The position numbers were made by a program, and so were the translations under genes. The notes under the pieces were generated by a model. That model was not told the DNA's origin, ran no database searches, and saw only the letters and a program-made list of their open reading frames with translations. A stretch of 43,617 bases of DNA from Reclinomonas americana ATCC 50394 (lineage: Eukaryota), in assembly GCA_048213135.1 (NCBI GenBank), contig PS015014.1:281787-325403 (forward strand), written 5' to 3'. This document shows, piece by piece, positions 4,687 through 34,278 of this stretch (the stretch's first letter is position 1; every line of letters starts with the position of its first letter).

Positions 4687-7600
4687 AAGAAACATATGAT
4701 CAGAGGATTGGGTGGGATANNNNNNNNNNNNNNNNNNNNNNNNNNNNNNNNNNNNNNNNNNNNNNNNNNNNNNNNNNNNNNNNNNNNNNNNNNNNNNNNN
4801 NNNNNNNNNNNNNNNNNNNNNNNNNNNNNNNNNNNNNNNNNNNNNNNNNNNNNNNNNNNNNNNNNNNNNNNNNNNNNNNNNNNNNNNNNNNNNNNNNNNN
4901 NNNNCTGGTGTTTCCTGTCTCACGCCCCGAGCTACCAACCGTTGACTGCGTAAGTGATTGCGTCCGTGGGCTGACTGAACACGGCAGACTTTGCGCGCAC
5001 TCGCAGGTACATGGTGCTGGAGGCTGCAATCCCGCTGATATTGACCGACACGGACGTCGTCGAGGAGGTCACTTTGGTGCTGCCGGAGAAGTCGGCGGCC
5101 ACAGCATACTCCAACTCGTACGTCTCCGTCAATGACTGCGTGTAGCGAGGTGGTGAGCGAGTGCGTCACAGACGAAATACACGATTGACATGTGAGTGTA
5201 CCAGCGATGCCGTGCGATACGAGGCTTGCCAGCCGACCGTGAGAGTGGAGCCAGACAAGTTGCGTACGCACAGAGACAGTGGCCGATGCGGCGCAGATGA
5301 GCTTGTTGCAGCTGTGTTGATATTTTGGAGAAGGTCAGAGACGAGGAAATAGTAAGACAACAGGTGCAGCAACATGCACACACCGGTGGTGACTGCCGTG
5401 GCCACCAGAGACGGTGGTGACTCGCCAAACGAATTGATCGCAATCAAACGGAAGTAGTACACAGTCGAGGGTTGCAGATCAAAGGCCGTCACTGTCATTG
5501 ATCCCGACGAGCGTGTCACAGTCTGGTGTGGTGTCGGCAGCAGATGAGCAACAAAACGACGCTTTGGAGAAGGAGGTGAGGACAAGCGCCGAACACACCA
5601 GCGAGTTCGTGATCGGCGCGAGACCCGTGGCAGGCGGGAACGAAGCCGACGTGGACCATTCCAGTCGATATTTGGTAGGCATGGGCGACAGTGTATCGGC
5701 ACTCGTCCACGTGACATCGGTGGTGGTCGCCGCCGGCTGACGCGCAAAAAAGAAAGAAGAATAACAAACACAAGGTGAGTAACTACACGTTAGGTTGGTG
5801 CACAGCAGTGTTGCGCGGCCTCACCGTGGGCGTCGTGGTCAGCACGGGTGCCGATGGGACCTGACCGGCCACTGGCACCGCCGGACCGACAAAGGCACTG
5901 CGCGAACTAAGGGTGCCGGCATTCGTGTACTCGACCTTGAAGTAGTACGTGGAGCCGGTGGTGAGTCCGGTTACATCAAACGCCATGACACCACTCGCCG
6001 TCCAGCCAGAGTTGTTGGCGACTTGCGACGTGATCAAACTGTTGTCGTTGGCACTCGAGTAAATGTACACGCGACGTGAGGAGAGCGCAGTGTACAATCC
6101 GCCGGAGAACGACGGCACGGAGGCGACCAGCGTGACTGAGGTGGCGGCGATACTGGCCACTTGCGGGAGCGTAATCGCCGCCGGTGCCACGGCAATGTTG
6201 GCACCGGACACGACCAAACCGAACGACTGCGGCGCCTGCAGCACCTTGGTGGCCACCACACGCACCGTGTAGACGCCCACAGCAGGCGACGTGAGAATCA
6301 CTTTCTCGGCCGTGTTCTGATTATCTGTTGAGCTCTGCGGGATTGAGAAAGAGAGGGAGAGGGAGAGGGAGAGGGAGAGGGAGAGGGAGAGGGAGAGGGA
6401 GAGGGAGAGGGAGAGGGAGAGGGAGAGGGAGAGGGAGAGGGAGAGAGGGAGAGAGGGAGATTAGCAACCGTCGTCGTGCGGTGAAGGGCGAGTGGAGTGC
6501 ACGAAACAGCGTAGCCAAAGAGCTGGTTGCCCGTCTGCAGCAACGCGGCCGAACTGACAGTGGTGCCACTGTACACGGCCAGATCGAGGTCGGCCTGCAG
6601 TGCGGCTCCCGGAAAGTCGGTCCAGCACAGCGCAACGCTGACACTCGCACTGGTGCCGGTGACTGCAAACTGCGCCGTAAATGTTTGTCCCTGCGACAGC
6701 AGCGTCTCCTCGTTGGAGAGCACCAGTGTTCTGCACAATGGTCAGTCAGTCGACCGGTAACAAGCCTATCACGTGAGGAGCGACGCACGAAGACACGGTG
6801 CTTGGGTCGACATTGGAGCCCGTGGCAGCGACGGCCGACATGACATTGTCGAGAAGGACGCGACCAAAGCCTTGCACCGACGAGTTGACCTTGTCGGTGA
6901 GCGTCGAAATTGAAATCGGCGAGTCTGTGCGACCGCAGGTGAGCGCACAGTTTACAAAGAAAGAGGTGTGCTGCTGTCGGAACGCACTCTGATTGCAGCA
7001 AGTGCCGGAGATGCGCACAGCCGAGTTGATGAGCATGGCCTTGATGAGTGCGGCCGAGGGTGTGGCAATGGCCAACGACGACGCGCCGGTGCTGTCGGCC
7101 GAGAACGGGTACTTGGTACGCAGCCACTGCCGCACAAGTGCTGATGCGGACACAAACGGGTGAGAATTTGCACACACACATAGGGAACAAAAGGACGACA
7201 ATAGTAGGCAACGCACAAGCGGCACCAGCAACACCCGGCGTGGCCATACTCGTGCCTGCGGCGAGAGGGAAAGGATGAGAAAAAGTGGGCTGCTCGAATG
7301 TCTCACATCGGCAATACGTACCCTGCAGCCCGGTCGTGTGATTCGCCACATTCGTCACTGCGATGTGAGGTGCACGCAGTGAGCAGGAGAGTAGATAGAC
7401 AACGCCCTTACGAACATCAGCACTGCGTACCATCGGCACGAACACCAGTGCCACATATGTCGGAGCCCGGAGAAGTGGACTGTGAGAGAGCGGAAAACAA
7501 AACGCCCCTGCGCGGCAGACGTGTGTCAGTCACAGCTGACAATGCACAAGGGTCGACTCGGAACGTGACACGCAACGGACTGACGACGTGGACGCCAAAT

Positions 7601-10043
7601 CGGCCTTCCGGAGTGGGACCTGCGAGGCGAGTCAGATCTCGCTCGTTTCAGTTTCGCGTGCGACCGAGTGCGTGCACACACCTCGTGATGAAAAGTACAT
7701 CATGTTGCTGGCGAGGGTTTTCCAGTTCGTTGCACCCACACTCAACACGTTCTTTGCCGACGCTTGCGAACTGCACGGGAAAAAGAGTCACTCAATGTAT
7801 CTCGCGCGGACACAGTGGCGACAGTCACGCAACGAGACGGAGGAGGTCTTTGGGCCCGAGTTACCAGCCGCGAAAATCACCAGCGTATCCTACAATTCAA
7901 ATGGGGGTGGCGTGGGTACAACGTTGGATGCACAGAAAGGGAGGCTGGCGGCACCACGCACTCGATTGTCCCAGGCGAATTCATCCAAGTCGGTGGACAT
8001 GGAGTCGTACGAGCCGGCGCCGCCGCCCCACGAGTTCGAGATGATGGTGGCGCCGCTGGCTCGCATCACCGACAAGTACGCAGCATTCACATCCACCGGC
8101 AAGTACAGCGACGACTGTGGTAAGCAAAAGACGGTGAGCAGGCAATACCACCTCTACACCTGGAGGCGGGGCGGCGGTCTCACCGACGATGACGGGCACA
8201 CAGAGTTTGTCATAAACAAACAGTCGCACTGAATGGTCGAGGGGCACTGGCAGCCGCCAGGTTGCATGCACCCCACGTCGTAGAACATGATGCGTGCTCC
8301 CGACGCGACGCCGTTGTAGGACGCCAGTGCGGGGGCCGACGACACGGCAGCACCGAGTGCGGTGCCAGACTGCACAGGGACAGCGATGGATGAGCCCGCC
8401 GGTGACTCGAGCATATACACGACAGTGTACGCAACAACATGAGTGCCGTGACCGCCTGTGATGCCGTCGACCGAGTCCATGAAATTAAAGTAGCCCTTGA
8501 CTTTGCGATGTGTCGACGAGAACACGGTGGACACGGAGTTGGAGTACGAGATCGATGTCGACGAGTCGTAAAAGTAGCAGGATCTGGAGAGAAAAAGGAA
8601 AGGGTCACAGTGAGGCGCGCGGGAGAAGAAGAAGAGACTGCAACGAGACGAACCCAGTGTCGAGGCCGGAATCACCAACACCTGTCGAAGACATGGCGCG
8701 CGTGTTATGGTCACGCAATGGTTTTCCTTCGAGGTGCATCAGCAGCGTACTCACCTATGACCTCGCTGGAACCGGTGAGCACGCTCGAGTATGGCGTGGA
8801 GCCGGAGACATTGGTTTGAATCACCCAGCGCAAGTCTGTGTTGAAGTTGGAGACGATTCGCCGTTCCTACAATACACCACACACACACATTGATTGAGCA
8901 GCCAGCACCGACAATCATGTTGAAGGCAGCTGCGTACGCACATGCACGACAATCACGCGCGGGTGTGCCTCAAAGGGCGCAACCACCGCCGTCAAGTCCA
9001 CATCGGGTGCGAATCCGAAAATCACCCACGATCCACCGGCCACGGCCCAGCGACGAACTGCATTCGTGGTAGGTGAGACAGGCGGCGCACCCCGATCGGC
9101 ACCACGACAGGCGCACACACCTTCGATATTGCTGGCATGGAGCGCCTCGACAATCTCTGCTGCGAATTGCTCGTACAGTGGATCGAGTGTATCGGCCGCC
9201 ACATGCGCCTGCACCAGCAGCGCCGGCACTTCCTCTGTCTCCGACTCTGCACTCGTGGCAAGGGCTGTGCGAGGGAGTGGTGAGCGGCGAAGCACAAGAT
9301 GAGCAAGAAGAAAAAGGTGTGGCGTGACGAAACATTGCCGTCGTCGCATACGATCGGCCAGGTGCGTCGACACGCGACTGGGCACGACTTTGCTGTACTC
9401 GGCCACCCACACCGACGAGGCCAACCGATCGCGAATACGGATCATGGCCTGCCAGGGCCCGTACACCAAAAACGCATTGTCCGGCACATGAATCACCGTG
9501 AAGCGGCGATCGGGAGCCACATGACCCAGTGGATCCATCTGCGCGCACTGTTAGTAAGCCACCGGCAGACAAAGAAAGGAAAAAGCAACACCACTTGAGA
9601 AATCGAACCTCGCGCAGCACATTTACAATAGAGCGTCGTGTCTCCAGCGACACTTGCGCGCCCACCAGCGACACCAAGTACAGTCGCCGCTCAGTCAGCG
9701 ACTGTCGCGTGGTCTCCACTGCAGTGGCCAGTGCCGATGGCACCGCCGACGTGTCCACCACATGACCAGTGGCCGGCAGTCGAATGAACCGCTGGGATCA
9801 TCATATCACAAAACATGATGAGAATTGTTACTGACCATGGTTCTCTCATGCACTCACCTGCCCATCATCACTGCTGCGCGCAACATCAGCAGTGTCGCTG
9901 TCATGATCGTCATTGTCTCCTCTCGCAAATGGGTGTGAGGAGGATGAGACTGCTCTCGCAGACACCATGCTCACTGTTGCGATGATCATCAACGTGACGA
10001 CGAGCAGTGTCAGTCGCGACCATCGTGGTGGCTTGGGACGCAT
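2835..10043 (-). CDS. Type I membrane S8 subtilisin-like serine peptidase (KP-43/TagC-like) with FN3 repeats, PST mucin-like stalk, TM helix and cytosolic tail; about 20 introns
   Basis: Hydrophobic N-terminal signal (LTLLVVTLMIIATVSMV). Spliced catalytic motifs: GVGDSGLD, GHGTHVSGT, FAAGNSG, AKNVLSVGA, FSSRGPTPEGR, GTSMATPGVAG, PSAALIKAMLINSA, QGFGRV. KP-43-like C-domain (ALCWTD..DLDL). FN3 signatures (VTGLTTGSTYYFKV, LQPSTVYYFRLIAINSFGES). PST repeats and TM helix IPLIAGAAGGGGVALIVLIVVIVVCV followed by RRHRRR. Confidence 0.9.
4215..4350 (-). repeat. Coding tandem repeat (Pro-Ser-Thr)n, mucin-like stalk
   Basis: Translates as PSTPSTPST...PTSPTTPTTPTSPTPS, N-terminal of the TM helix of the S8 peptidase. 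Confidence 0.85.
6350..6460. repeat. (GGGAGA)n hexamer microsatellite inside an intron of the S8 peptidase gene
   Basis: Directly visible tandem GGGAGA array. Confidence 0.95.
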
Positions 10044-10341
10044 GTCTGACTCTGATGGGCGGAGGCAAGGGAGAGNNNNNNNNNNNNNNNNNNNNGAGAG
10101 AGAGAGAGGCGCGGAATTGCCACTCGTGCGTGCGCGTGTGTCTCACTCAGTCACGTGTGTGCGTGCGTGTGCGCGCGGACTCAGAGTTGACTGCACTCCG
10201 TGTGAGATCTCCGTCGCGGCGAGAAAAAAATCGAGGACATCGGACATAACCCATAACTTCACGCCCCTTCATTCGCAAACATCGTCTCTCCTCCTCCCTC
10301 CTCCTCCACAACAACAAACAACAAACAAAACCACACTCCCC

Positions 10342-11741
10342 TTAAAGCGACTGGTTCTTCTCGACGAGGACACGCACAATGCATCCGAGGCCGGCCTTGT
10401 CGGCGAGCTTCGCGTGCCACTTGAAGAGTTGACTGGCGCTGAGGCCCTTGCTCAGGCCCGCGTAGATCACCTGCGGGGGAGAAGAAGAAGAAGGAGAAGA
10501 AGAAGAAAAGGGGGGTGTCAGCGGAAGGGAGAGACGAAGGGAAAGGGAAGGGGGCAGGAGAGGGGAAGAATTGAGAGGAAAGGAGAAGGAAAGAGAAAGA
10601 GGCGAGGAAATGAAAGAGGCGAGGAGACAAGGGAAGAGAAGAGGAGGACGAGCGGAGAGGACAAGTGAAGAAGAAGAGAAGGGAAGAATGGAAGAGAACA
10701 GAAGAGGGAGGTGGAGACATAGGAGGCAGCAGAGAGGAGAAGAGAGTGGAGGAGAGAGAAAGAGAATGCAGCAGAGAGGGGAAGAGAAGAGAGGTGAGAA
10801 GGGACGGGAAGAGAAGGGAGGAGTAGAGAAGAGAAGAGGAGAGGCGAGAAGAGAATGCAGTGAGGAGAGAAGGAATGACAGAGAAGGGAGGAGAGAAGAG
10901 AGAAGAGAAAGAGAATGCAGTAGAGAGGAGAAGAGAACGAAAGACAGGAAGAGGAAAAATGAAGAAGAAGAGAAGGGAGGAGAACAGAAGAGAAGAGGAG
11001 AGGCGAGTATGCAACATAGATCAATAGAAAGAGAGGCCCAGCATGCAGACTTCCCACTGTGACCGACCTTCATCAACACATCCTGCTCCTCAATCGACAG
11101 ACCATCCAATGCACGATCAATGTCGCTCTCCTTGGCCGCCGCCAGCGCCATCACTACTGCTGCCACTGTCTTCTCCTGCACTCACACGAGATAATAATAA
11201 TAATAATAATAAAAAAAGGCGTGAGTCATTCCTTCTCTCACTCTCGCTTGTTCATGCACACACGGACCTTGATGTCCGTCGACTCGGCGTATGGTGGATT
11301 CGAGAGCAGCACATGCAGCGCCTGACCAATGTCACCACTGCGAAGAGAGAGAGAGTCAATCAATCAACTCCTCCACAATCAACTCGACACATGCGCACAC
11401 ACACATATGATGCTCGCATGTGAGTGAGACAGACGAGAGTGGCAGTGTGCGTGTGCGTGTGAGAAAGAGCAAGTGAGTGAGTGAGAGAGGAAAAACCCCG
11501 AAGGTCATGTCATCACACACACACGCGCACTTGCACACCCGTGCACACACACACAAGCGCTGTCAGAAAGAGCGCACAGAGAGGCACACGCGAGTGCGCA
11601 CACAGACACGTGCGCGAGTGTGTGCGTGTGTGTGCGACATGCCGACTCACTGCAAATAGAAAAAGCCTATCAAAGAGAGTCATGCACTCACCCGCCTGCC
11701 GCCTTGCGCGCCTCTGCCTCTTTTACTCGCACGCCGTCCAT
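10342..11741 (-). CDS. ARPC5: Arp2/3 complex subunit 5 (p16-Arc), 3 introns
   Basis: Spliced product MDGVRVKEAEARKAAGG|GDIGQALHVLLSNPPYAESTDIK|EKTVAAVVMALAAAKESDIDRALDGLSIEEQDVLMK|VIYAGLSKGLSASQLFKWHAKLADKAGLGCIVRVLVEKNQSL. D.LMK.IY.G and L..WH......G.G.IVRVL are ARPC5 hallmarks. Confidence 0.93.
10471..11067 (-). repeat. 597-nt ARPC5 intron that is mostly a polypurine/polypyrimidine low-complexity tract
   Basis: GT(cggt)..AG boundaries. The plus strand is almost only G/A, with a recurring GAGAATGCAG unit. Confidence 0.85.
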
Positions 11742-11774
11742 TAATGCTCGCACTGTGAGAAACACGCGCAGATG

Positions 11775-12178
11775 GGGGTGTTCGAGCATCAGTCACCCTT
11801 GAATTTTTCGCACGGGAACCCTTAAGTTTTCCATGTCACCCTTAAGTTTTTGGCATCCTAGTACGTCATGGATCCCGGGCAGCTGCAGCCTCACCGCGGT
11901 TCAAGTGCCGTCTTGTGTCCACGGATGTGGAGGAATGCATCGTCACAACTCCACTGGCCGCGCGCAGCGCGCGCTCTGTGGACACGAGTCACCCTGTGCT
12001 GAGCTATCGACACCGATGCTGTTCAAGACTCACGTGCTAGAGCAGCTGGCCTTGCTTGACTGTGGAGATCGCGCAAGTCTCACTGTTCTCCAAGCAGACG
12101 AGGAGGAGTGTGCATCTTCTCTCCTGCGGAGATGTTGCGTTTGCGCCAAACTTGTTCAGTAACCACTGCAACTGCACG

Positions 12179-12220
<42 letters not shown>

Positions 12221-14399
12221 CACTCAAGCACACAAGCACATGCACAGCTGGCACAGTGTTAATTCTCCGCACATTTTGCGGCTCACTGCATTACTCGTCT
12301 CCAGCCTCCCATGCAGGGCGAAGCATGCAGGCCAACAGTATGACTATGACCTTGTACCGTGGCGACCTACCTGGCAAAGTGACCTCCTACAGCAGGCACA
12401 GAGGTCGGTGCTGTTCCTTGTCGGTGAGTGGTGGCTCATTTGCGTCTGTGGTTCCGCTGTCGCACTCAAATCACAACAGTGGTCTGCACTGCTGCTCCAC
12501 GCGAGCGCAATGTCAACACCGTACTGTCTTATCGTGGTGGAGCTGGTGGTGGCTCCATATGCATTGGCAAGCGCGTTCGCGAAGGAGACGGCGATGAAGA
12601 TGGGCAGCAGGAGAAACGCAACTTCGTCGCAGTCGAACTCCTCCGGGTCCGCCTCTGGCTCTGGTTCCTCTTCGTCCTCCAGGGTCGATGCGGCTGCCGC
12701 AGCTATCGCAGAGAGATAATCGAATTCCGAAATCGCAGCAGCAACGAGAGCTTGCTCGTCTGATCTCGGATTTCAGCAACTCTCCGCAGGTCCGATCGAC
12801 GGGAAGTATGCACCGTCTGCATCCAAGGGCACCATCTGGCGGTTTGTCATCGGCAAGACAATGGCACCTTTCAACCAACTATCTCAGCGGACCGCAGTCG
12901 TCGGGTGCGCCCGCTGCGCCCGTTGCACATCCCCGGTTGGCTGCCAATCGGGACACACGGACTGCCGCTGCCGCGGCGCTCGCCGCTGCGCCGACCGCAC
13001 AAGCATCTGCGTCGGGATCGACGCCTCAGCCCTTGCTGGCAACGCAGCTGCAGCGCCCTTTGGCGGCGGTCGCAGTTTCTCGCCAAATGCAATGACTTTC
13101 ACCGTCGGCCGGTCGCATTGCCCTGTGCTCATTCCTGCATGTGGCAGGGGTGCAGCGCTTCAGAATGCCATGGGTAGCCAGACAGTTCTGGTTCCCGTCC
13201 GCCGCCCTAGCCCTGTCGGCTCTCATGGCAAGCAGGCGGCACCGTTGTCGGCACTGGTTCGCAGTATCGATGTCGATCGGTCGAGTCCAGGGCTGGCAGC
13301 ACCAGTACCACCGCTGCAACTGCAGCCGGCGCCTGCGCCTCCACTTTGGTCACCGTCCGTGCCACGGCCACCACCGCCATCGCCGCCACCACCGCCANNN
13401 NNNNNNNNNNNNNNNNNTTCTCCATTGACAAGTCTGGCTCTTCGCCGCTGCAGCTGTCCTCGCTGTGGTACACCGCCGCCGGCCGCGGGTCGACGCCTGC
13501 AACACCGTATGCCGGCGTCGGAGGGAGATGCGTCAGCCTCGCAGCAGCAGCAAGCGCCCCTGCACTTCCAGCTGCCCCCGAGCCACCNNNNNNNNNNNNN
13601 NNNNNNNNNNNNNNNNNNNNNNNNNNNNNNNNNNNNNNNNNNNNNNNNNNNNNNNNNNNNNNNNNNNNNNNNNNNNNNNNNNNNNNNNNNNNNNNNNNNN
13701 NNNNNNNNNNNNNNNNNNNNNNNNNNNNTATCCGCGAAGCGAAATTTTTTACCTCAGCAAGAGCAGATGTTTGAGCAGATGATGCTTGTCGATGAGGAGT
13801 AAATTGGCCTCTTGGCTGTTGAACTGTGCAGTTGAATTGATGCAGAACCGTACCGATACGAACAGAATAGAATGAATGATCATGATCGATCGGTCGACTG
13901 GAATGCTGGAGAAGTTGAGTCTTCTGTAGAGGCTCCTGTTTGCAAACCATCACAGCCAACCATCAGCAACGCTATGAGTGATTGCTGTGAGTTAAATGCA
14001 AGGCATGGGCATTCTCACCGGGAAGATTTCATCGAAATACAAGCTTGAAACGCGCCAGAACTGGGCGAATTTGGCCGCCGAAACGGCCTGCCTGGCTGGT
14101 GTGGATTCGTTAGTTACCCCTTGACTATTTTGCCGTAGTGACCCTTAAGTTTGCTGGGTTCGGGTTCCAATGGGCCTCAGTTACCCCCAAAGAAAATGTG
14201 AACCAGCCGTGGTTTCTCTTATAATTAAGCTTGCAAAATTCGGAACGCCAGCATTAGCCATCTCGATTTTTTCTCGCTTTTCTCGTGATGTCTGAGTTTC
14301 TGGTGCTCACTCAAGATGGTGATCATCATGTAGCTGTGTTGCTGTTTGGATTAGTAAAGTTGTTGTTGTTGTAGGGACACGCTCGAGCTCGAACACCCC
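11775..14399. mobile_element. Putative DNA transposon, apparently non-autonomous: 13-bp TIR GGGGTGTTCGAGC, 4-bp TSD GATG
   Basis: GGGGTGTTCGAGC at 11775-11787 and its exact reverse complement GCTCGAACACCCC at 14387-14399. GATG lies immediately outside both ends (11771-11774, 14400-14403). Subterminal ACCCTTAAGTTT repeats at 11818, 11838 and 14141. Confidence 0.8.
12016..13802 (+). CDS. Possible spliced Pro/Ala/Ser-rich gene or gene remnant inside the TIR element
   Basis: Plus-strand ORF pieces (MLFKTHVLEQLALLDCG; AGQQYDYDLVPWRPTW; P/A-rich block ending EQMFEQMMLVDEE*) with intron-like spacers. No DDE transposase motif recognised; two N-gaps. Confidence 0.3.
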
Positions 14400-14468
14400 G
14401 ATGACAATCACGGCCAATCACTGGCGCAGCGAGCACCGACTGTCCGTCTTGTCTCACTCTTCGCACAC

Positions 14469-16534
14469 ATGGACGTGTCCTTTGGAGGAGCCTCTCTGAG
14501 CATCCTCGTGTGCCAGAGTGTGTATGCAGCGCTGCTGGTTGCCGGTTTGTCGTGGATGATTGTGTGGAGAAAGGTGTGTTTTTTTTCGCGCGCGCGTGTT
14601 ACTCTTTCTCTCACTGCAGCTGTGTGTGTGTCTCTCATAGAGACCACCAGTGGCACAGCGGTCTGTGTGGCTGGTGTCCGGCTCGGTGATCGGACTCTCC
14701 ATGTTTATCTGCTTCTCGGTGTTTTTCCGCGCCAATGCCAACGGACCCACACTCAGTCACACCGCCGACTTTATCTCCGACATTGGTGGGCGCTCTCACC
14801 ACACGCTCACACTCTCTTCCTCTTCTCCTTATCGCGTATATTCATGTGCAGGATTCACGTGTTATTTGGCAAGCACATTTCTGCGCATTTATCGCCTGCG
14901 TGTGCTGTACGATGCCAACATTGAGAAGGTGTTGATGAATGAGCAAGAACATGGTGCACTGGCACAGCCGCACTCCTTGGATGCAGCTGGAGCTGGTTTG
15001 TAAGGAGCGCGACTACCAATTATGCGATGCATATGTGATTTGCGTTGGTCGCCTGAAACATTGCGTGCGCATGCAGCGGATGTCAGGCGGAGTATGCAGG
15101 CGCGCGGAGCTGCTGCGATTGCGAGTTACCTGGCGGTGCACAAGCGCAAAATAAGACCGGCAGTGCTCTGGTTTTGGTTCTTGGCCATTATGTGCATACG
15201 CATCTCCATGGCTGTGTTCGGCTTTTTCCGCACGGATCCGGTGCAAGTTTCGCCGCTTGCATGCTGCAGCTGTGGTGTTTAATGGTTGACCGTCGTGCGC
15301 AGAATGTGTTCTCGTATTTGGACACGGTGATGGGCTCGCTGACCTCGGCCATCTTCATCGTTGTCTTCATCATCTACTCGTACCGGCTGCGCGTCGTCAA
15401 CGACGCATTCGGGCAGACGCTTGAGCTGTACACCACGTCCACTGCCAGTATCATCGGCTGTGCCATTGATCAGTTTGTGGAGTGGGGTGACACGGCCACG
15501 TGGGCCGACTGGCTCTTCGAGGCACTGCAGCTGCTGCTGTTCGTGCTGGCCGTTGGTGTGCCCATCTTCGTCAGCTTCAAGTACGTACAACATCGCCTTC
15601 TCCATCTTTCCCCTCTCCCACTCACTCTACTCTCCGCAGATGGGCGCGGCACAGCACGCTGCACACGATCCGCAACACCAGCCTGCAACGACAGCGATCA
15701 CGAGCCGCGTCCGGCTTTTCTCTCACCGAATCGCTCACGGAGAGTGTACTACCGATCCTCGAGGACTCCGAGGGCCGTGCAGCACTGCACGCGTTCCTCG
15801 TACGCGAATTCAACGTCGAGTTGCTGTATTTTTATGGTGCGTATCGATGAAACTAATTTTGTTTACTAAGTGTGCTCACTTATAATACGACTGCGACTCG
15901 GGGGCGCACAGACGACGTGGTGCGCTACAAGAAGCTGGGTGAGTGAGCGCACGTGTTCTTTGTCTCCCTTCTCTCTACAAAAAGTAACATGCGCGCGCGT
16001 GCTGCCAGCGGCTGAATCTAACAACTCGGCGACGCTGCTGTCGACGGCCAGAGTCATGGTGGCCAAGTACTTTGAGTTGGACAGCGTCATGGAACTGAGT
16101 TGCGTGATACGCCACGTCTCGTCTCACTCGCCGCGGTGCGCCCGCACCCTCATTGTGTGCATCGAATGAGCAGATATTTCGGCGGCCGAGCGGGACTCGG
16201 TCATGAACGCTGTGCGGGGCGGAGTTGTATCCAAGTCCACCTTTGACAGGTTTCGTGAGCGCGCGCGTATGTGAGTTGTAACGAGGGCGGCGACTCAGCG
16301 TCAATGTGTTTGCGATGGTGCAGACCGTTTCACTCGATCATGTTGACCATGCATCAAGACACGTATCCTCGCTTCGTCAAATCGGCAGAGTACAAGAGCA
16401 GTCTCCAACGGAGTCTGCTGTCCAACGCCCGACTCAACTTCCTCCAGGGAAGCGATATGGAGCTCAGAAAAATCATCATGGACGAGGACGCTGAAGAGGA
16501 GGAGGCAGCTCGCGTTCTCGGCGCGAGGAGATAG
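14469..16534 (+). CDS. 7TM-RGS protein (seven-transmembrane domain fused to a C-terminal RGS GAP domain)
   Basis: Seven hydrophobic segments after splicing (e.g. LSILVCQSVYAALLVAGLSWMIVW; WLVSGSVIGLSMFICFSVFF; VLWFWFLAIMCIRISMAVFGFF; WLFEALQLLLFVLAVGVPIFVSF). RGS motifs ILEDSEGRAALHAFLVREFNVELLYFY, AKYFELDSVMELNIS, IMLTMHQDTYPRFVKS. Confidence 0.9.
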
Positions 16535-16572
16535 CGATTTCCATTACACAATTTACTATAATACCATATTGC

Positions 16573-17976
16573 TCAGTCAGGTGATCGCGCCTCGAACAGA
16601 GTGGTGTACACCTCTGTGGTGCCTGCTGCGGGTCCACTCAGCAATGCGTGGGCGCGTTCCAGTTCAGCGACGACACGTGGTAGGGTGTCGCGCGTCAGGT
16701 GGCGAGCGGCATTCCACCCCGGCGCCACGGGATCCTCCACCGCAAAGAGCCAGGCCTTGTGGTCGCGCCGGAAATCGGTCTTGGTGCCAAGCGCTCCGCT
16801 GGTCACCGACAGGACGTGCTTGCGCATGTCAAAGGCGCCGCCGACGAGGAACTCAAAGAAGCCGCGCAACAGCGCACCGAGTGTCAGGCCGCTCTCATCC
16901 AACTCGCCAAACAGCTGCTGCCATCGCCAATCGTCGTCCTCGTCTTGCTCCTCCTCCCCCTCCCCCTCCCCCTCCCCTTCTCCCTCTGTGTCCTCAACCT
17001 CCGCGTCCACACACTCGTCGTAGTCTTCGTAGGATGACGCCATGCGCGTGTCGACAGGCGGCAGACCGTGAATCACTTGCAAGTATGCTGCGCATGTACG
17101 GACATGAATGATGTTTCTCGGGTTGGAAGAGCACGCCGCCACGAACCAACAGCTATCAAGCTCCAGCAGTACGAGGTGGGCGTGCCGTCACGCGAACAGT
17201 TGATTGCTCGCCGCTTGGCCCAGTGTCTGCAGCAGGTCAGCTAAAGGAGAGAACGTACGACAGCGGAGGAACACAACGCACTTGACCAGCAGGATCAGCA
17301 ATCTCGCGACTGCAAACTCCTCGACAAAGAGGCGCAGGAGGTGCGTGTTGCACAGCGCATCGGTGTTGTTGACACTAACATCGGCATCGAAACCACTATC
17401 GGAAAAACAAGAAGAGACAACTCAGTTGCTGCAAAAGAGAGATGCAACAAGCTTCCAAGGCCGCAACGTCTGCGTATCACGAAAGCGCACAATAGGCACG
17501 CGAGCCTCATCCACGAGCTCCACATTCTCAAAAGCTCCGCTCTCCGCGCGTCTCTTGCTGACCAATTGCGCGCGCACCTGCTTCAGCACGCGGATCTGCA
17601 TGTCGACCGAGTGCCACTCGCTGTGCACGATGCACACGTCGACATCGACGTTGCCACGCAACGCCATGCCCGAGATGAGACTGCCAAAGACGTGCACGCG
17701 TGGAGCGCTCCGTGCTGAGCTCATAATTAGCTGCGGACAACACGCTCTTTGTCTCTCACCCTCTCTCTCTCTCTCTCACACACACGCACCTGCAAGCTTG
17801 CTCGCGGCAGCCTCCACCAGTGGCCGCACACGACGAGCGACAAAGAGCAGTGCTTGTCGTCGAGTGCGCCAGGGTTCGGCGACTTGGCGCACCACTGCCC
17901 GCACATGCGCCTCCAACTCAATGGGATCACAGGCGACTGCCTCTGCTACTCTCCGCCTGCTGCCTCCACTGGCCAT
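16573..17976 (-). CDS. Non-canonical poly(A)/poly(U) polymerase, Cid1/Trf4-like nucleotidyltransferase
   Basis: Pol-beta NTase motif VHVFGSLISGMALRGNVDVDVCI; ARVPIVRF; third Asp in DADVSVNN; KHWAKRRAIN...TSYCW; PAP-associated motif AVEDPVAPGWNAAR. Confidence 0.88.
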
Positions 17977-18082
17977 TCAGAGAGCGTTGTTAAAGCGGGG
18001 GGAGACACGATGGATTTTTAATTTTTCCTGGTTGGTTGGTTGAAGAAGAACAGACCGAAGACGTATGGCGCGCGGGGCACGC

Positions 18083-20013
18083 TCAACGCCGCGTCTGCTG
18101 TTGCCGCAGCAGGGCCTCGGCAAAGCCCTCCAGGTCCTGCTCGATCTCGCCCGTTCTTGTCTTTACCCACTGGTCGAGCACCGTCTGCTCGTCGCGCAGG
18201 AATTGCTGGAGAGCCACGTCCACTGTGTTGCGACTGGTCAGCATGCGGCAAGCGAGAGGGAGACGTGGGGGAGACGGCAAGGAGAGAACCTTGCTCGAGG
18301 AGCTGCTTCCGATAGGCGTCCACGCGTGACTCGGTTTCATGCGCAAACTCCTGGCTCTTCTGCTTGAGATCGGAGAACAAAAACTCGCGCCGCTCCTGCA
18401 ACTTGCGCTGTCCCAACATGTCCAGGCCCTGCACACACACATACACAATGAGGACGCAGCATTCCGGCAGGATGTCATGTGGAAGGCTGGTCGCACCGAC
18501 ACTTGCGGCAACCGCGGTACCGGCGGCAACGAGGCCGGTGCCATGGGTGCCGGCAACAGTGAACCGGGTGCCTGCCTTGGTGCCACCGCTGGCATGCCCG
18601 CCGACATTCCACCCTGCAAAATCGACGCGCGTGGGTAACACAGGAAGCCGAGCACGCACCACACGATGCAGGCGTACACGCAAACCATGCCAAACGATTG
18701 CGGTGCGGCCGAGTGCGCACCGCCCATGAACCCAGTCGCCACTGAAGGTGCCCCTGCCTCTGTTTGTGATGTGCACGTGAGTAAAGCAAACCACCATCGA
18801 CCGAAAAGACGCCCAGCGACGCACGGTTGCGCATGAACGGCATGCCGGGTGCCACCGAGCCGCCCATTGGATCGTGAGCCTGCGTGGCAAGCAAATGAGC
18901 GTCGACACTTCCTCACACACTCTCTCGCTCACTCACCTGAGGGAAAGGAACAGCTGGCGGCATCATGCCTGGTGCGCCCATGACACCACCCACCGCGACA
19001 CCCATCATGCCTCCATGCCCACCCATCATGGGGAACTGCTGCTGCTGCTGCTGCTGCGGCATGGTCATCGCCGCGTTGGCTTTCCGCAGCACCGTGATGC
19101 TCAGTGGCACCGCACTCAGCTCCCCGCTCGTCGTTTTCGCTGACACACACAGTGAGCCAAACGACAACGCAAGGGCGAGAGGCCGAGAAGGAGAAGAAGA
19201 ACGCACTGGGATAGCCGACCACGGTAATGACATCGCCGGGGACCAAGCTGTCAACGACACCGCGCAGATCTCCACGAAAGTCACTGACGCGCACACACCC
19301 ACACACATTGAGCGTGGAAGGATGGAGCAATTGGCGCGCGCACACACGCAACGTCTGATCACACATGAGCTGAAACTTGACGACATCGTCGCCCTTGATG
19401 TCGACGAAATGCAGACGCTGGTTCACCGTTCGCTTGCGCGTCACCGTGCCTACACACACACATACAAGTCAGTGCACACAGAGATAGAGAGAAGCACGCG
19501 CGCGCGCACGCACCTCCAATCGTCTCCACGCACTGCCGCCGTCGCTCATTGGCCACCACCGACGCGTACTTGGTGCGAAACTCCTCCAGCGACAGACGCC
19601 CTCCACTACCACCACCTCCACCATGTCGCTGCACACATACACACCACTCAACACACACATGTGCGCGCGTGTGCATCACTCTCTCACACACTCACCTGCA
19701 CAGCAGCCGCGGCCGCTGCAGCCGCTGCTGCAGCAGCAGCTGCCTGTTGCGCCGGCGTTGTTGTTGTTGTTGTTGCCACTGCCACTGCTGCAGCACCTCC
19801 ATTCATTTTTCGCTGCTGCTGCTGGGGAGCAGCAGGTGCTTGCTGGTCAGTCTTTTGTCGCTTGAAATGAGGTTCGCGACTGTCATCCTCCTCCTCCTCG
19901 TCGTCCTCGTCTTCGTTATGGTTCCTCTCGTGGTCAGCCTCCTCCTCCTCCTCCTCTTCTCCTTCTCTTGCTGGATCGTCGTCTTCTGCGTCGTCACGCA
20001 ACGCTCTCTTCAT
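18083..20013 (-). CDS. Protein with LysRS-type anticodon-binding OB fold, acidic N-terminus, Q/M/P/G-rich linker and C-terminal coiled coil; no synthetase catalytic domain
   Basis: Spliced LSLEEFRTKYA..ETIGGTVTRKRTVNQRLHFVDIKGDDVVKFQLM..LVPGDVITVVGYPTKTTSGELSAVPLSITVL resembles the LysRS N-terminal OB fold. It is followed by low-complexity sequence and LQERREFLFSDLKQKSQEF...LLRQQQTRR*. Confidence 0.72.
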
Positions 20014-20089
20014 TTGTGTGTGTGTGTGAGTGAGTGAAATTTTGCACGATCACTGCAGCGTTGTGTGTGTGTGTGCGTGAGCGCGCGTG

Positions 20090-20537
20090 ATGTTGATCCC
20101 TGTGCGGTGAGTCATCTTGCGTTCGTGCTGCAAACGAGCGCGCGCGTGTGTGTGTGTGTGTGCCTGCGCGCGCGTGCGTCACATGTCGTGCTCATCGCTC
20201 TCTCTCACACGCGCACAGGTGTTTCACGTGTGGCAAGGTTGGATGCTTTGTGTAGCTCGTTCATGCCTCCCCCTGCGCCGCTCACGCATGCGTTGCAGGT
20301 CATTGGCAACAAGTGGGAGCTCTACACCAAGTTGCTAACAGAGCAGGACTACCCCGAGAGGTTTGTCGTCGTCGTCGCATCCCACTCTCTCTCACACACA
20401 CGTGTGTGTGTTTGACTGTGAGCGTGTGTGGTGTGCGCAGTGAGGCACTGGACGAGCTGGGACTGCGACGATACTGCTGCCGTCGCATGTTGCTCACTCA
20501 TGTGGATTTGATTGAGAAGTTGTTGCAGTATCGCTGA
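20090..20537 (+). CDS. RPB10: RNA polymerases I/II/III subunit RPABC5 (Rpb10), 3 introns
   Basis: [64 protein letters not shown]. Confidence 0.97.
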
Positions 20538-20682
20538 TGTGTGCTGCTGCTGCACGCGTGAAATGAATCGCACCGCCCACAAGGCCCTGTTTAGTGACCC
20601 CCTCCTCTGGCACACACGTCGTCGTCCACGCATGTTCCAAGTTGAACAAGACGTCGTCCTGCACGCACCATTGAAACCGACG

Positions 20683-21329
20683 ATGAGTGGAGACGGCGAT
20701 CGTGCGGCTGCTCGCATGGCAGAGGCCATTGGAGGGCGCACGGGTGTGCCCGGTCGCACGTTCGGGCAGCGACTGCGCGCTCATCGACTGCAATTCGCCA
20801 CTGTTGCGCAAAGAAGCAACACGCTACTCCCTCACACACACACTCACTCACTCACACACGCATGCGCAGGCGGCACTGGCGGGTCTGTCATTCGGCCTCT
20901 CCTTCCAGGTGTACATGCGCTCGCGGCGCGTGCAGGAGCTGGAGGGTGAGCTGGAACGCGAGAGATACGCAAGGTCGGTGATTGCATTCCACTGTCTCTC
21001 TCTCTCTCGTGTGGCTCACGGAGGAGGGACGGTGGGGCAGGCAGCAGACGGCGGCGGTGGCCACCGATGTGGCTCGTGTGCTTTCGGAGACGGCGTCGAC
21101 GGGTGAGGCCGGCGAGCGGGGACGACAGGCGCTGCGGATGCTGGAGCGCATTGACGACAGCATGCAGCAGCAGACGACGGCCGTGTTTGACCAGCAACGC
21201 AGTTGCGTGGACACGCTTGTATCGTTGTTGACTTATTCGCGCTCATCAAGAGCAACAGGTGCCCCTCCTCCTTCGGCCTCGCAATTACCCCCGAGCGACG
21301 GACAACCCAAGCCCGTCCGCATGGTTTGA
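20683..21329 (+). CDS. Small hypothetical single-TM coiled-coil protein, 2 introns; start uncertain
   Basis: MSGDGDRAAARMAE...LQFAT|AALAGLSFGLSFQVYMRSRRVQELEGELERERYAR|QQTAAVATDVARVL...; splice phases are consistent. Confidence 0.55.
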
Positions 21330-21466
21330 TCTCTCTCTCTCTCTTTCCCCTTTTCTTCTCCCGCACATCAATCGTTTAGAATGCCCGACATATACATTGA
21401 GTGGTAATCGCCTTCAAACTTTCTACGGGACTGGCAAAACATAGTTGATTAGGGGGTGGGAGTGTT

Positions 21467-23896
21467 TTAGCGGAAACCGCGGTAGCTGGCAACCGGCGGC
21501 AGGTTGGAGGCAAAGTTGCCACCGCCACCGCGGCCGCCGCCGCCACCACCACGGTAGCCACCATAACCACCACCACCACCGCGACCGTAGCGGGGATTGC
21601 CCGACGGGCCACGCGACGACATGGCCATGGACTGCAGGTCCGGCGGCACCTCACCACCGGCCTCACGCAGAATCTTGACAATGTCGCGTGCCAGCTTGGC
21701 GTCCTTGACGCGGTCAAAGAACGAGTACGACACACCACGGGCACCAGCACGGCCTGTGCGGCCAATGCGATGCACGTAGTCCTCGGCGTTGTTCGGCATA
21801 TCGTAGTTGACCACGTGTGTGATATCCTTGACATCTGCACAAGGTGAAGCGAACGCACAAGGCGCACAGCAAAAAAAGAGACACAAGAATGGCACACGAA
21901 TTAACAACAATGACGACAACAGCAACACCAATGACGCAGCAAACACACACACACACGCACAAAAGCCCATGAACAACAGACACACAAAGGAAAGGAAGAA
22001 GAACAAGAGAAGAGAGAGAAGGAAAGTGAAGAACGAGAGTATAGAAATACACAGCGAGAAAGGAAAAGGCACCACCACCGCCCAGCCCGCCACAAAACCA
22101 CCATCCGTCGTCGCCACCACCACCACTGCCACCAGCCACCACCGCCAATCTTTTCTTCACGGCGCGCGCGCGCGCGCGCAAGCCGAGGTACACGACGTCG
22201 ATCGTCGTGCTCGGCTCCAAAATGCGCGCAACGCAGGATGGAAGGAAAATAAAAGAGCGGAAAAAAAGGCGAGCAAAAGAGAGAAAAAGGACTCGGACTA
22301 CCGACAGGATCCAATCTCACATCGTGAGGGAATGCAGTAGCCAAATCACTCGTCTCTCCCTCCCACCTCCCTCCACTCTCCTCCTCCTCCACCCCGGCAC
22401 GCACGAAACTTGCGCGACACATCAAACGAGTGCGCGCAAGCGTGCGCGCACACACACATAAAGGCGGTGGCTGGGTCGAGTCGGCCCCCAGCAGGCCGAC
22501 CAAGGCAGTGGGCGTCTCGTACCTCGAAGAGCAGCACAGCACACGGTGGCGCCGGACCGACACACAGCAGTGTGCCGGCGCATGCCGGCCGCTCTTCGAA
22601 TCAACAATAACAGTGGCGGTTGGCAGTGCGTGCACGCGCGCGCAACCACCGCTGCTGCCGATGCCTCGAGGCAGCAAGCAAGCAATGATCGCGCGCGCGC
22701 GCGCATGCACGCATTCATGCGCCCAGAGAGAGGGCGCTGACAACGGATTCTTCGAGGGGTGGCCAGAGGCTCCGGCAGCTGCAACAACCACGCACACACA
22801 CACATGCCCAACGACACAAATCCCCACACACATAGATTCAACCCGCCCCACACTTACCGAGACCACGAGCAGCCACGTCCGTCGCCACCATAATGGGGTG
22901 AGTGCCGGTCTTGAACTCGGCGAGCACCCAGTCGCGCTCCTGCTGCGTCTTGTCACCGTGAATCGCCAGCGCCGGGAAGCCGTCCATGCGCAGATCGCGA
23001 GTGATCTGGTCGGCGTTCTTCTTGGTCTCGCTGAAAATGATGACCTTGGACTTGCTGGAGGGCTGCATCACCTTTTCCAGCACCTTCATCAGGCTGTGGG
23101 AGGCGGAGAGGAGAGGTAAGTATTGTGCAGCAGGAGGGAAGAAATGAAAAGTCGATAGAAAGGCACGCACCACCCGCGCTTCTGGTAGCCGTCGACAAAC
23201 TCAAACAGCTGAGTCACGTTGTGGNNNNNNNNNNNNNNNNNNNNNNNNNNNNNNNNNNNNNNNNNNNNNNNNNNNNNNNNNNNNNNNNNNCGGCAGCTTC
23301 GACAGGTCCCAGTCGCGAATGTCGCGCAGGTTGGCGCCCAGCTGGCTCATAGAGTCGCCGCCGCCGCCAAAGCCACCGCCACCATAGCCACCACCGCCAC
23401 TGCCACCGTAGCTGCTGCCGCCGCCGTAGCCTGTTAGAAGAAAAAAGAGAAAAAGTGAGGACATGTGCAGATGCACATGCGCGTGGAGGAACAACACCAA
23501 AAAAAGCAAGCAAGCACGCACCACCACCGTAGCCACCACCCGAGGAGGAGCCACCACCATAGCCACCACCCGAGGAACCGCCATAGCCGCCAGCGCCGCT
23601 GCCGCTGCCGCCTGTTCACATAAAAAAGAGTCAGCGCCCGATTTGGAAGCACACACACACAGAAAGGGAGCGCAACTGCCATAGCCGCCGCGCGAAGACG
23701 ACGAGCCGCTGCCGCCAAAGTCGCGGTCAGGGGAGCTGCGGAGTGAGCTGTGGTGACGTAAGCAAGAGAGAGAGAGTGAGTGATGGACATGGATCAAGTT
23801 GGAAATGACCCCCACTTCAAACCTCTTGCGATCAGAAGAGCGCGAGTAGCTGTCGTACTCACGGTCGGAACGTCCACGGTAGTCGCGATCAGACAT
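21467..23896 (-). CDS. DBP2: DEAD-box RNA helicase DBP2/DDX5 (p68); N-terminal RecA domain falls in an assembly gap
   Basis: RGG/GYG-rich termini; [101 protein letters not shown]. Confidence 0.95.
21835..22857 (-). other. 1023-nt DBP2 intron in helicase motif V containing several hairpins
   Basis: GTAAGT donor at 22857, AG at 21835-21836; interrupts ARGL-D in phase 1; about 15 times the typical intron length in this window. Confidence 0.9.
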
Positions 23897-25231: not shown

Positions 25232-28200
25232 TTATATATAGACGAGTTTCTCGGCGCGTCCCGATCGCTCGCCACGCCGCTTCGGAGGCGCCAGGAAGCC
25301 GAGATGCATGAGCTCGCCCACCGCAAAGAAGAACCTGGCTGTGCAGAAGCGTCGTCGTTATGGATAGCAGAGGTGATATTAACGAAGGCGAGGAGTGGGA
25401 GAGCGGTCGGCAAAGGATATTGTAAGGTGGCCTGCTTCGACGCCTTGCCCTTCGACTGTGAGGCTGCCTCGTCGCGCCGTTGCTGTGCGCGGAGTTCTGC
25501 GTCAAATGCGCGAAACAGGTCGGCGAGGTTGATCTTGCGGCCAGCCTCTTTGTACAACTTGAATCTGTGGGAGGCAGCAGTCAGCGCCACGGGGGATGAA
25601 GATTAGGATGAAAACAAGCAAACTTGTACGAAGCAGCAACGCAGTGTCGACATTGGGGAATTGGACAGCCAACTCGATATCGTGTTGCACATCGGGCAGC
25701 GAGCTGGCCAGAGCCGCGCGCGTCCAGTAGCGAAAGTCGGGATTGAACATCTGGGTGGGCACAGCTGTGTGAAACTCGCACATGTGCGCAACCAACGCAT
25801 CGAAGCACGCACTTGCTGCAGTGTACGTGGCGCGGCGTAGAAGCAGAATTCGTTTGCCAAGAACCGCTCGCCAGTCGGGAGCGACAGGATCCGTCTGCGT
25901 AGGCCATTGTCAGACAAAAAACGACAAGTGACAGTGGTGTTCCTGTTCTCAGACGCAGCTGGAAGAATGCGCGCACAGTCGCGACAATTTCAGTGACTAT
26001 GCGACCTGGATCGTCCTCCGCTCGAGCACCACCACCAGCACCAGCACTGCCACCACTTATTCTGTGTGCATTGCGCGCCAGTCCGTTAGTCCCATCGACG
26101 AAAGAGTTACCGAGTTGCATGCAACACAACTTGGAACGCTTCTTCGCTGGCTCGTCAGCATCGGTGTCGCCTCGTGATCGTCGACGACGGCGCTGGGACA
26201 AAACAATTGTCGATTAGTGGATGTGAAGAAAAAACAAGGAGAAGAGTGAATACACCAAGACAGTCAAGTCAGCACACACCCCAACGCCGTCGGCACTCGC
26301 TGTCACCTCGGCTTGTCGATCATCAGCACCGGCGTCTTCACCTTCGCCCCCAGCATCGGCATGTGCTTCTGCGGCAGCCAGAGAAGAGCTGGCGCGACTA
26401 CACAGGCGCACCAGTGGTTCATATTGCGTCGGCGCATACAGTGCATCGCCGCTGTTGGTGGTGGCCTCTTGCAACCTCGACAACAGTGTCCTGAGTGCCT
26501 GCACGCATTGCGAAGCAGGCCGTTTGCTGCAAGGCGCACTGAGTGTGAGCAATCGAGATGGACAAGACAACAACGGCTGCACGCGCAAAACCTCAGTGCA
26601 TCCATGTGTCGCTGAATCAGAGTGTGCCAGCCAGTGTCGGACTCGTTGTTCACTACACACACAACTCGTCAGTGCAACACTGACGGCAACGCACCCCGAA
26701 TTACGCACCGGCAACACCACTGGCATCTTCGCCGGCCAACGGACGCCGTGTGATGAACGACGTAATGTGCGCCTCCAATACTGCGCAAGTGTTTTCAGTA
26801 AAGACAGCCGACAACATTCGTATAGCGCGCAACGCACATTCCGGTTGCGACGCCTTGAGCCGCTCCCGATGATCACGAGCTGCCGTCACGACCAAGGCCG
26901 CGTAAATGTCACTCGCGGCGACCGGACTCTCTTCGTCGCCACACTCGCTCAGAAAATCGGCGCACAGATGGATGGAGGCTGCGCGCTGCATCGCCACGTT
27001 TTCCCAGTCAGCGACCATCACACCAGTGCATGCTGGCGCTCTCTCGTCGCACCTGTTGGTGTTCACGGGCTACCATCGTCACTGCCTCCGGCATCGCCTT
27101 TCGCAGTGCAATGTCGTCACCAAAGAGCACCAGCTGGCGATCGGCCTGATCGGCCAGGCTGCTCAGCCACCTGGAGTGCAACGCGGGTGTTAGGTCTGCG
27201 ATCTGCACCATTAAGACACACACACACACTCTCTCTCGTAGACGCACTGTCGGAAGCTGACAGTCCGCCGGAAGCGCGACAAGAAGCGGCGTGACAAGGT
27301 GTGGCACACTTGCTGCACCGAATTCAAGTCGTCCTCCGCCAGTCGAACAGCCAGGAAGGCGAGATCCGAGTCCTCCAGCAGGCGATGCCAGCAGTACTGA
27401 GGACGCACGCGACGAGATGAGGGGATGAAGAGAGGGTGCGTCACCACTGCCGACGCACCTTGGTCATGTGTATCAGCGACTGCACTGACGCAGTGATGCA
27501 GTCGTAGGTCTGCAGAATGAATTCGGCAACAGTGGGGTGGAGTGCCAGTGGTGAACGGCTGTCGTACATGCAGTGGCCGACGACAGCATTGCGCAGTCGG
27601 CGTGGAACGCCAGTGCAATCAATGGACTGCACGCGAGTGCGAAAGACGTGACGCGACTCGCACAGAGCGGCTGTTGTCGGATCACTGCCGTGTGCCAGCA
27701 CAGTGACCACCACCACGAATGGAATCGAGGCGGCGTACAGACCCAGAGTGTAGACCAGGTCCGACAGAGCGCCATACTCGAAGATCTCCGTCTGCAGCAC
27801 CGTGATCACCACATCGTCGCCTGCTCCCACCAGCGTCAAAACACAGAAAAAAAACATGGCACACGCTGATAATGTAGGAAGGCGAGACACACCATTGCCA
27901 CATTGCCCATACAACGCAATCAAGTCGTCAATGTCCATGTCGTTGGGGTCCATCTACAATTGAAAAGAGTGTGTGGGTGGCAACACCAATACCATGGACA
28001 GCAGTGATCGTGAAACCTTGCTGCCACGCGCAGCCGGCCGACCTGCTGCCGCCACAGAGCGATCCACCAGGGTGCGGCCGACTTGCGACACAATCTCTTG
28101 CAGGCACGACCCGGCATCGGTCCACACACGATGCGAAGGCAATTGCACTTGCAGTGGCGGATGAGCCCCGTACGCGCCGTGAAGAAGCACGGTGCCCCAT

Positions 28201-29398: not shown

Positions 29399-29475
29399 AT
29401 CGCGTTGTGAAGAAAGTGTTGCATGTGGAATTTTCATCATCATCCTCTTCATCAACGCACGCGCACGCACACACC

Positions 29476-30127
29476 ATGTCTGGCCGCGATCACGGAAAGA
29501 AGAAGCGTTGCGTGTGCTCGTGCGCGCACANNNNNNNNNNNNNNNNNNNNGCGCTGTCGGCCTGCCTGCACGACGAGAGTGCGGTCGACGCCATGCGCGT
29601 GCTCCGGCGCCTGGCCAAACGCGAACCCGACCTGCGCAAGATCATCTCCCGCGACGAGGCCGCCGTGCATCGCCTCTTTGAGCTGCTCGACAGCGCACGG
29701 CACCAGGCCGCCCGCACACTCGGATCGCTGGAGACGGCGCTCATGGCGGTCGGCGAGCGGCAAGTGGCGGCCGTGGAACGCGCAGTTGGCGACGCCCAGA
29801 GCGCGCTCACGCCGGCCGTGAACGCCCTCATCGCCCGCCTCTTTGCGCATCGCGTGGCGCGCGACTCAGAGACGCTTCTCGCCGCCGTCTCGCGCATGGC
29901 CGACCCCGCGCACTTTCCCGTGCATCCCACGCGTCGCGCGGCCGCGCACGCCGTGCTGCGCTTCTGGGAGATCTCGCTGCGCGACTGTGCCGACGAGGGC
30001 ATTGCGGCGGCGCGTCGCTCGCTCGAAGCCGTCGGTGGTGTGGATGCTATGCGGCGGTTACACGCCGACGCACTGGAGCGCAACGACAAGGAGGAGAAGG
30101 AGTGGACGTCGCGTTTTCTGCGACTGT
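29476..30127 (+). CDS. ARM/HEAT-like helical protein, partial (runs into N-gap)
   Basis: MSGRDHGKKK then ALSACLHDESAVDAMRVLRRLAKREPDLRKIISRDEAAVHRLFELL...LEAVGGVDAMRRLH; amphipathic helical repeats. Confidence 0.5.

Positions 30128-34230: not shown

Positions 34231-34278
<48 letters not shown>

Follow-up and report, generated by a model that had tools for sequence, protein, structure and literature searches.

The Sola2 elements DFa-1/2/3 of Dictyostelium fasciculatum are described as having terminal repeats of 12-13 bp and AT-rich 4-bp target-site duplications (AWWT), and the same description includes Dictyostelium Sola2 members from which most of the transposase region is missing and which contain other sequence (PMC3627910; Bao and Jurka 2013). 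In Salpingoeca rosetta, the Sola1 element SrosS, for which the Repbase reference is Sola1-1_MonBre from Monosiga brevicollis, is about 3.3 kb long, occurs in 2 copies, starts with GGG, and has 32-bp repeats and a 4-bp duplication; its coding region is broken by introns and low-complexity repeats, and the authors' account of it reports no recognisable protein domain (PMC6875170). Here, we analyse a stretch of 43,617 nucleotides from Reclinomonas americana ATCC 50394 (assembly GCA_048213135.1, contig PS015014.1, positions 281,787 to 325,403 of the forward strand), referred to below as the window and numbered from its first letter. Within it, positions 11775-14399 (2.6 kb) are bounded by short inverted repeats with an identical tetranucleotide outside each, and we consider that, on balance, this is probably a single copy of a DNA transposon of the cut-and-paste type (class II, with terminal inverted repeats), non-autonomous and lying between the gene for ARP2/3 complex subunit 5 (ARPC5) and a downstream gene.

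The ends are formed by a perfect inverted repeat, GGGGTGTTCGAGC, complementary at 13 of 13 positions, which is evident both from direct reading and from a mechanical scan, and is recovered by blastn. The left arm is at 11775-11787 on the + strand; the right arm, which is GCTCGAACACCCC when read on the + strand, is at 14387-14399 on the - strand. Both arms are abutted by the direct repeat GATG (at 11771-11774 on the left and 14400-14403 on the right, by reading and scan), the putative target-site duplication, and the span 11771-14403 covers both of its copies. The left junction reads ...GCGCA GATG GGGGTGTTCGAGC ATCAG... and the right junction ...CGCTCGA GCTCGAACACCCC GATG ACAATC.... An earlier note on this DNA, made from its letters alone, had pointed out exactly these 13-bp repeats and the GATG outside them, and both are confirmed to the base, except that the length of the duplication may be 3 bp. 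There are five G at the left junction (11774-11778) against four C at the right, and the duplication may therefore be GAT (11771-11773 on the left), with an offset of 1 nt in the G run; the sequence is equally compatible with GAT and with GATG. A longer duplication of 8-10 bp, of the hAT or Mutator type, is ruled out, the flanks agreeing for 4 bp and no further. The exact 13-mer is found twice in the window, these being the two arms, and alignment of the ends shows no inward continuation of the inverted repeat beyond them. It is worth adding that a tandem hexamer, GCTCGA GCTCGA, can be read at 14381-14392 and forms a CTCGAG palindrome; the right arm includes the second copy as its inner part, and the left end has a single copy.

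In having 13-bp repeats, a flank that can be read as 4 bp and no recognisable transposase, the element resembles DFa-1/2/3 as these are described, and differs from them in that its flank is GATG rather than AWWT, and in that their Fanzor1/TnpB-like gene was not found here by Pfam. With SrosS, as published, it has in common the 4-bp duplication, if GATG is the true reading, the GGG start, a size of a few kilobases, a low copy number and the lack of a recognisable domain, in contrast to a repeat length of 13 bp here and 32 bp in SrosS. The Repbase rule for assigning non-autonomous elements, as given in PMC4455052, asks for an equal length of duplication and for termini with at most 1 mismatch over positions 1-11. 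When the first 11 bases of SrosS (GGGTATCGCTC) are compared by eye with those of the present element, they agree at 3 of 11 in register and at 5 of 11 with a shift of 1 nt, this being the single Sola1 terminus compared, and the pair thus falls outside the rule. Neither the 13-mer nor the subterminal motif described below occurs in the file of all 20 S. rosetta families (supplement of PMC6875170), and the S. rosetta Harbinger and MULE termini in that supplement differ from those of the element. The 4-bp duplication, together with GRG..CYC termini, had been taken in the earlier note as a pointer to Sola2. However, the Sola1 element SrosS has a 4-bp duplication too (PMC6875170) and those described for Sola2 are the AT-rich AWWT (PMC3627910), unlike GATG, and a length of 4 bp therefore points to the Sola superfamily generally and not to Sola2.

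The end structure was first set against chance. The scan was for perfect inverted pairs of at least 13 bp, excluding simple sequence and 200-10000 bp apart, with a flanking direct repeat of at least 4 bp. The window holds nine inverted pairs of this size and spacing (166 when low-complexity ones are counted), and the 11775/14387 pair is the only one of the nine with a flank of at least 4 bp. A second match of the repeat-plus-flank scan, at 20402-21952 (GTGTGTGTGTTTG, flank ACAC), is an artefact of a GT/CA microsatellite. Of 300 windows simulated with an order-3 Markov model, which contained on average 13.3 inverted pairs, 27 held one or more with an exact 4-bp flank (about 0.09 per window). 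On this count the inverted repeat and the GATG flank, taken alone, are not clearly beyond chance and are weak evidence. The suggestion in the earlier note that the intact ends indicate a young insertion is not supported, since neither the 13-bp repeat nor the 4-bp flank is long enough for dating and such a pair can arise by chance.

The structure as a whole nevertheless exceeds chance, because short repeats, unlisted in the earlier note, are present near both ends. A motif of about 15 bp, GT[C/G]ACCCTTAAGTTT, occurs three times immediately inside the left arm as a series of direct repeats at 11792-11806, 11815-11829 and 11835-11849 on the + strand, which are 17, 40 and 60 bp from the left terminus. 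It is found again on the + strand at 14138-14152 (GTGACCCTTAAGTTT), with a weaker copy at 14113-14121 (GTTACCCCT), these two being 247-287 bp from the right terminus. The exact 12-mer ACCCTTAAGTTT is present three times in 43.6 kb, two copies being a little way in from the left arm and the third about 250 bp in from the right arm, where 100 shuffles give an expectation of 0. Allowing up to 2 mismatches, a 13-mer from the motif has 4 matches in the window, all within the element, compared with 0.38 expected; at 3 mismatches there are 4 matches compared with 3.98 expected, which is the chance level. Similarly, GTNACCCYT has 5 matches in the window, 4 of them at the element ends, compared with 1.17 expected. 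In transposons of this type, subterminal repeats present at both ends are frequent, though not a requirement.

The relatedness of the two ends is also seen by alignment. A direct repeat of 34-36 bp links 11796-11829 with 14117-14152, and when the left 100 bp are aligned to 486 tile-strands of the window, the top four are all at the right end (scores 29, 29, 27 and 26), the next best being 21 (mean 15.0, standard deviation 2.2). As a control, 810 real pairs of positions in the window, with the same spacing as the element ends, were compared in the same way. The inner score of 29 was reached by 17 of them without masking and by none of the 810 when simple repeats were masked, the maximum then being 27. 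Combined with the repeat and flank, the similarity of the inner ends puts the joint chance at about 1e-4 to 2e-3 per window. Three other interpretations of these repeats were tried and rejected. A candidate copy of the motif in inverted orientation, 20 nt from the right terminus (GTGTCCCTA compared with GTCACCCTT), agrees at 6 of 9 positions, which is too weak to count. A reading of 11796-11829 and 14117-14152 as resembling long terminal repeats is ruled out, the similarity stopping at the repeat limits, as is a nested element of 300 bp at 14098-14399, whose putative left terminus agrees with the 13-mer at 6 of 13 positions by eye.

The interior was reported in the earlier note as containing proline/alanine-rich frames and two gaps but no recognisable transposase, and all of this is borne out. 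The longest interior frame free of N is a proline/alanine-rich frame of 226 residues at 12720-13397 (+), which stays open across the two N runs as far as the stop codon that ends at 13802. A second frame, of 142 residues from stop to stop, is at 12347-12772 (-). No Pfam match below an E-value of 0.01 was obtained for any of the 61 frames of at least 30 residues that overlap the span, interior frames of at least 100 residues included, and specifically no DDE_Tnp_4 or Plant_tran domain is found among the 61. For the 226-residue frame, 3095 word-sharing candidates in the protein collection gave 0 matches at an E-value of 0.001 or less, and its Atlas recognition was 1040 with no usable match, where 91 of 100 proteins of known family reach 2300. 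The 142-residue frame has 0 matches among 1.84 billion representatives. Against PDB sequences, the 226-residue frame has no match, the 142-residue frame nothing below an E-value of 0.77, and none of four interior frames was matched, the best E-value being 0.57. The absence of a transposase gene is well supported and not absolute, in that introns and the gaps could hide exons, and Pfam is stated to have no models for the Sola, Zator, Kolobok, Academ and Dada transposases (PMC5751038).

A codon model was trained on 899 codons from the Pfam-confirmed exons of the window (G+C at third positions 0.77); it is a crude model, under which some long frames outside the element are also negative. Seven of eight interior frames are negative overall, at -0.22 to -0.56 per codon (-0.33 for the frame of 226 residues and -0.22 for that of 142), and the interior is in this sense unlike host coding DNA. 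The sole positive frame, of 62 codons at 13210-13395, scores +0.11 per codon, for which a PACRG-like gene elsewhere in the window, at +0.17, gives a comparison. The threshold for coding-like sequence is passed by a single 300-nt interior segment, 12451-12750, in the 142-residue frame, and no other interior stretch has a host-codon score that is locally positive. Apart from this segment, the element lies within 9541-12450 and 12751-14700, which are the longest two runs of the window to lack coding-like signal.

These results bear on the alternative that the interior is a host gene specific to this lineage, possibly containing introns and broken by the gaps, that encodes a disordered protein rich in proline, alanine and glutamine and is either surrounded by repeats that arose by chance or carried as cargo by an element. 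Such a gene would fit the long frames on both strands and the one segment above threshold; low-complexity proteins often have no detectable relatives, and host genes here are split by introns into short signals at the level of exons. Against this, every frame of at least 100 residues is negative when scored whole, the Pfam, sequence, Atlas and PDB searches gave no match, the Atlas recognition falling well below 2300, and GC-rich DNA yields long non-coding frames on both strands. We therefore regard a host gene in this position as distinctly unlikely. The interior, which has no recognisable gene, would then be filler without coding function or else a low-complexity frame specific to the lineage.

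Several observations weigh against a transposon, in addition to the frequency of chance pairs given above. No second copy or fragment is found in the window, either by blastn with the element or when 46 interior frames were compared by blastp with 612 frames outside it; a single copy is thus visible within the window, and mobility and family are unproven. At up to 2 mismatches, the 13-mer has 5 matches in the window compared with 1.45 expected, and the 3 that are not arms are at the chance level. There is no sharp step in base composition at either boundary. The interior contains a (CA)22 microsatellite (12175-12218, by repeat scan), and this and its GC-rich stretches resemble the host's own non-coding DNA; repeats of a similar CA-microsatellite and GC-rich kind are also present in S. 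rosetta transposons, among the sequences in the supplement of PMC6875170. Finally, the right copies of the motif are in direct and not inverted orientation relative to the left copies, and the layout is asymmetric, with the motif about 250-290 bp from the right terminus and 17-60 bp from the left.

Much of this would be expected if the span were ordinary intergenic DNA, its repeat and flank being coincidental and its motif belonging to the ARPC5 spacer as a sequence duplicated locally or with a local regulatory role. The lone copy, the smooth boundaries and the orientation and placing of the motif all fit such a coincidence, as do the simulated windows with an equally good pair, the number of inverted pairs in the real window being lower than the simulated mean, and the unmasked control pairs that equal the inner similarity. 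What it does not account for is that this similarity lies in complex sequence and not in a microsatellite, and is equalled by none of the masked controls, that the exact 12-mer is absent from the rest of the window, and that three copies of the motif directly adjoin the left repeat arm; with the 0.09 for repeat and flank, it would also have to overcome the low joint chance. We regard coincidence as the less likely reading. A tRNA-derived element is without support, the tRNA and Rfam scans of the window giving 0 matches each, and the collection of prokaryote genomes gave 0 matches to either end of the element, as expected.

The span also contains two assembly gaps found by scan, of 20 N at 13398-13417 and of 141 N at 13588-13728. 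As a result the ends of the element are on different contigs, the left on 10096-13397 and the right on 13729-23224, with a contig of 170 bp between the gaps, and the length of the interior is approximate. It could be supposed from this that three contigs were misjoined across the N runs and that the apparent element is a product of the join. However, an inverted 13-mer without mismatch, flanked by the same 4 bp on each side and accompanied by a common subterminal motif, would not result from a wrong join, and both gaps fall within a CCACCGCCA-type repeat, which is a frequent cause of gaps; an artefact of this kind is very improbable. The window is more generally a draft scaffold, with 12 N runs and 2728 N in all, and several of its long listed frames, 29176-31485, 33574-35667 and 39583-41460 among them, stay open solely because N runs lie within them.

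The position of the element is in the short spacer between two divergent gene starts. On the left is ARPC5 (p16-Arc), at 10357-11348 on the - strand, with its 5' end towards the element; exons are seen at 10357-10467, about 11065-11181 and about 11265-11348, from the matches to PF04699 (E-values 1.3e-12 and 0.019) and the translations. On the right, an open frame of 151 residues at 14469-14924 (+) starts with an ATG 66 bp past the right flank and is directed away from the element; it has a hydrophobic N-terminus and overlaps a coding-like segment at 14701-14940, and it has no Pfam match. Transposons typically land in such places, which would be equally suitable for a small unannotated gene. 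On the minus strand, 17 codons (11691-11741) run from an ATG at 11741 to a GTGAGT donor-like site. On the sequence, these could be exon 1 of ARPC5, which would then lie 30 bp from the left flank. If the ATGs at 11741 and 14469 are the true starts, removal of the element would, from our reading, leave about 100 bp between them. The ARPC5 intron at 10468-11065, of about 600 bp, is nearly all pyrimidine on the coding (minus) strand and, when read in frame, gives a long run of S/L/F/P; at 10800-10999 in this intron, the GC skew is 0.83 and the AT skew 0.87.

The element is not filed under any superfamily. As the earlier note had argued, the TTAA-specific superfamilies can be set aside, the flank being GATG. 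This applies to Kolobok, which makes a TTAA target duplication. It applies equally to piggyBac, which likewise duplicates TTAA (PMC5199201). The exclusion of PIF/Harbinger on the ground of a 4-bp duplication does not stand, the 3-bp GAT fitting the sequence equally. As described in the S. rosetta survey, the PIF/Harbinger element SrosHar has 27-bp repeats and a 3-bp duplication (PMC6875170). The present element resembles this group in the length of its duplication if this is read as GAT, and differs in that the SrosHar terminus (AGAGGATTTCTG...) is unrelated to it. PIF/Harbinger elements prefer TWA as target, and GAT is not TWA; there is also no DDE_Tnp_4 or Plant_tran transposase domain in the 61 frames, although a criterion based on protein would miss a non-autonomous member. 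The G-rich termini with a TGTTCG-like core may resemble the ends of Tourist-type elements.

Two further groups of elements were compared. Unclassified Fanzor1 families of insect viruses are described with 13-bp repeats, 4-bp TTAN duplications and no transposase, for which reason they were left unassigned by the authors (PMC3627910). The element here is like them, as described, in its 13-bp repeats, its 4-bp flank and its lack of a transposase, and unlike them in that the flank is GATG and not TTAN, that their hosts are insect viruses and that they carry Fanzor1. Dada-1_MB of Monosiga brevicollis has a length of 2719 bp, and Dada elements as characterised in PMC3706591 have no terminal inverted repeats and make duplications of 6-7 bp; membership of Dada is ruled out on both counts.

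The transposon remains the reading that we favour because of the repeat and flank, the related ends, the interior that is unlike host coding sequence, the lack of relatives, the position in the spacer and the precedent of Dictyostelium Sola2. The description 'non-autonomous or cargo-carrying', given in the earlier note, is the best fit to transposon-like ends without a recognisable transposase. In such a scheme, a transposase encoded elsewhere in the genome would bind the terminal repeats of 13 bp, with the subterminal motif of 12-15 bp probably bound as well. It would excise the element and join it to a target cut with a stagger of 4 nt (or 3 nt), whose repair would leave GATG (or GAT) at both sides. 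A bolder version can also be stated, in which the element has moved recently, carries cargo and belongs to a DNA-transposon family absent from all libraries, with non-AT-rich 4-bp duplications and a 13-bp terminus plus a CCCTTAAG-centred subterminal motif; its host would be of a flagellated, GC-rich protist lineage with barely described transposons, and it would have inserted into a promoter that two divergent genes share. In this full form we consider it unlikely.

The remainder of the window is that of a GC-rich, intron-bearing eukaryote, whose DNA is similar in style to choanoflagellate sequence in the supplement of PMC6875170, with Pfam matches at the level of exons among the 220 open frames of at least 100 residues that were searched. 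These are fn3 (5397-5573), a Cid1-type poly(A) polymerase (16723-17715), a DEAD-box helicase C-domain over two frames (21743-23089), an ORC winged helix (25432-25584), RPL13e (32589-32699), glycosyltransferase family 90 (GT90; 35965-36564) and WD40 (38413-38670). Reverse transcriptase, integrase and transposase domains are absent from the Pfam matches anywhere in the window, and the GT90 frame has no match in the protein collection. The PACRG-like gene mentioned above (ParcG, PF10274, E-value 3e-34) is a single open frame at 33442-33990 (-). Among 5.8 billion clustered proteins, the best relative of its product has 175 residues and 58% identity; one PDB chain matches (E-value 7e-12), and the nearest Atlas clusters are animal PACRG-like proteins. 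The source lineage seems to be poorly sampled.

We see in this a reasonable, if modest, lead. It does not change the understanding of how transposons work and, if true, adds another member to a well-known kind of element. A survey that starts from transposase proteins would miss an element such as this, and the S. rosetta survey, in the families that it lists, has only those with a transposase gene (PMC6875170). If the reading is correct, the terminal 13-mer and the subterminal motif would together provide a handle for finding the autonomous partner, and the empty site would read ...GCGCAGATGACAATC.... An insertion about 70 bp upstream of the putative start of one gene, and near that of another, could affect the expression of both. 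For the organism, it would mean one more non-autonomous DNA transposon in a protist genome that is apparently poor in such elements.

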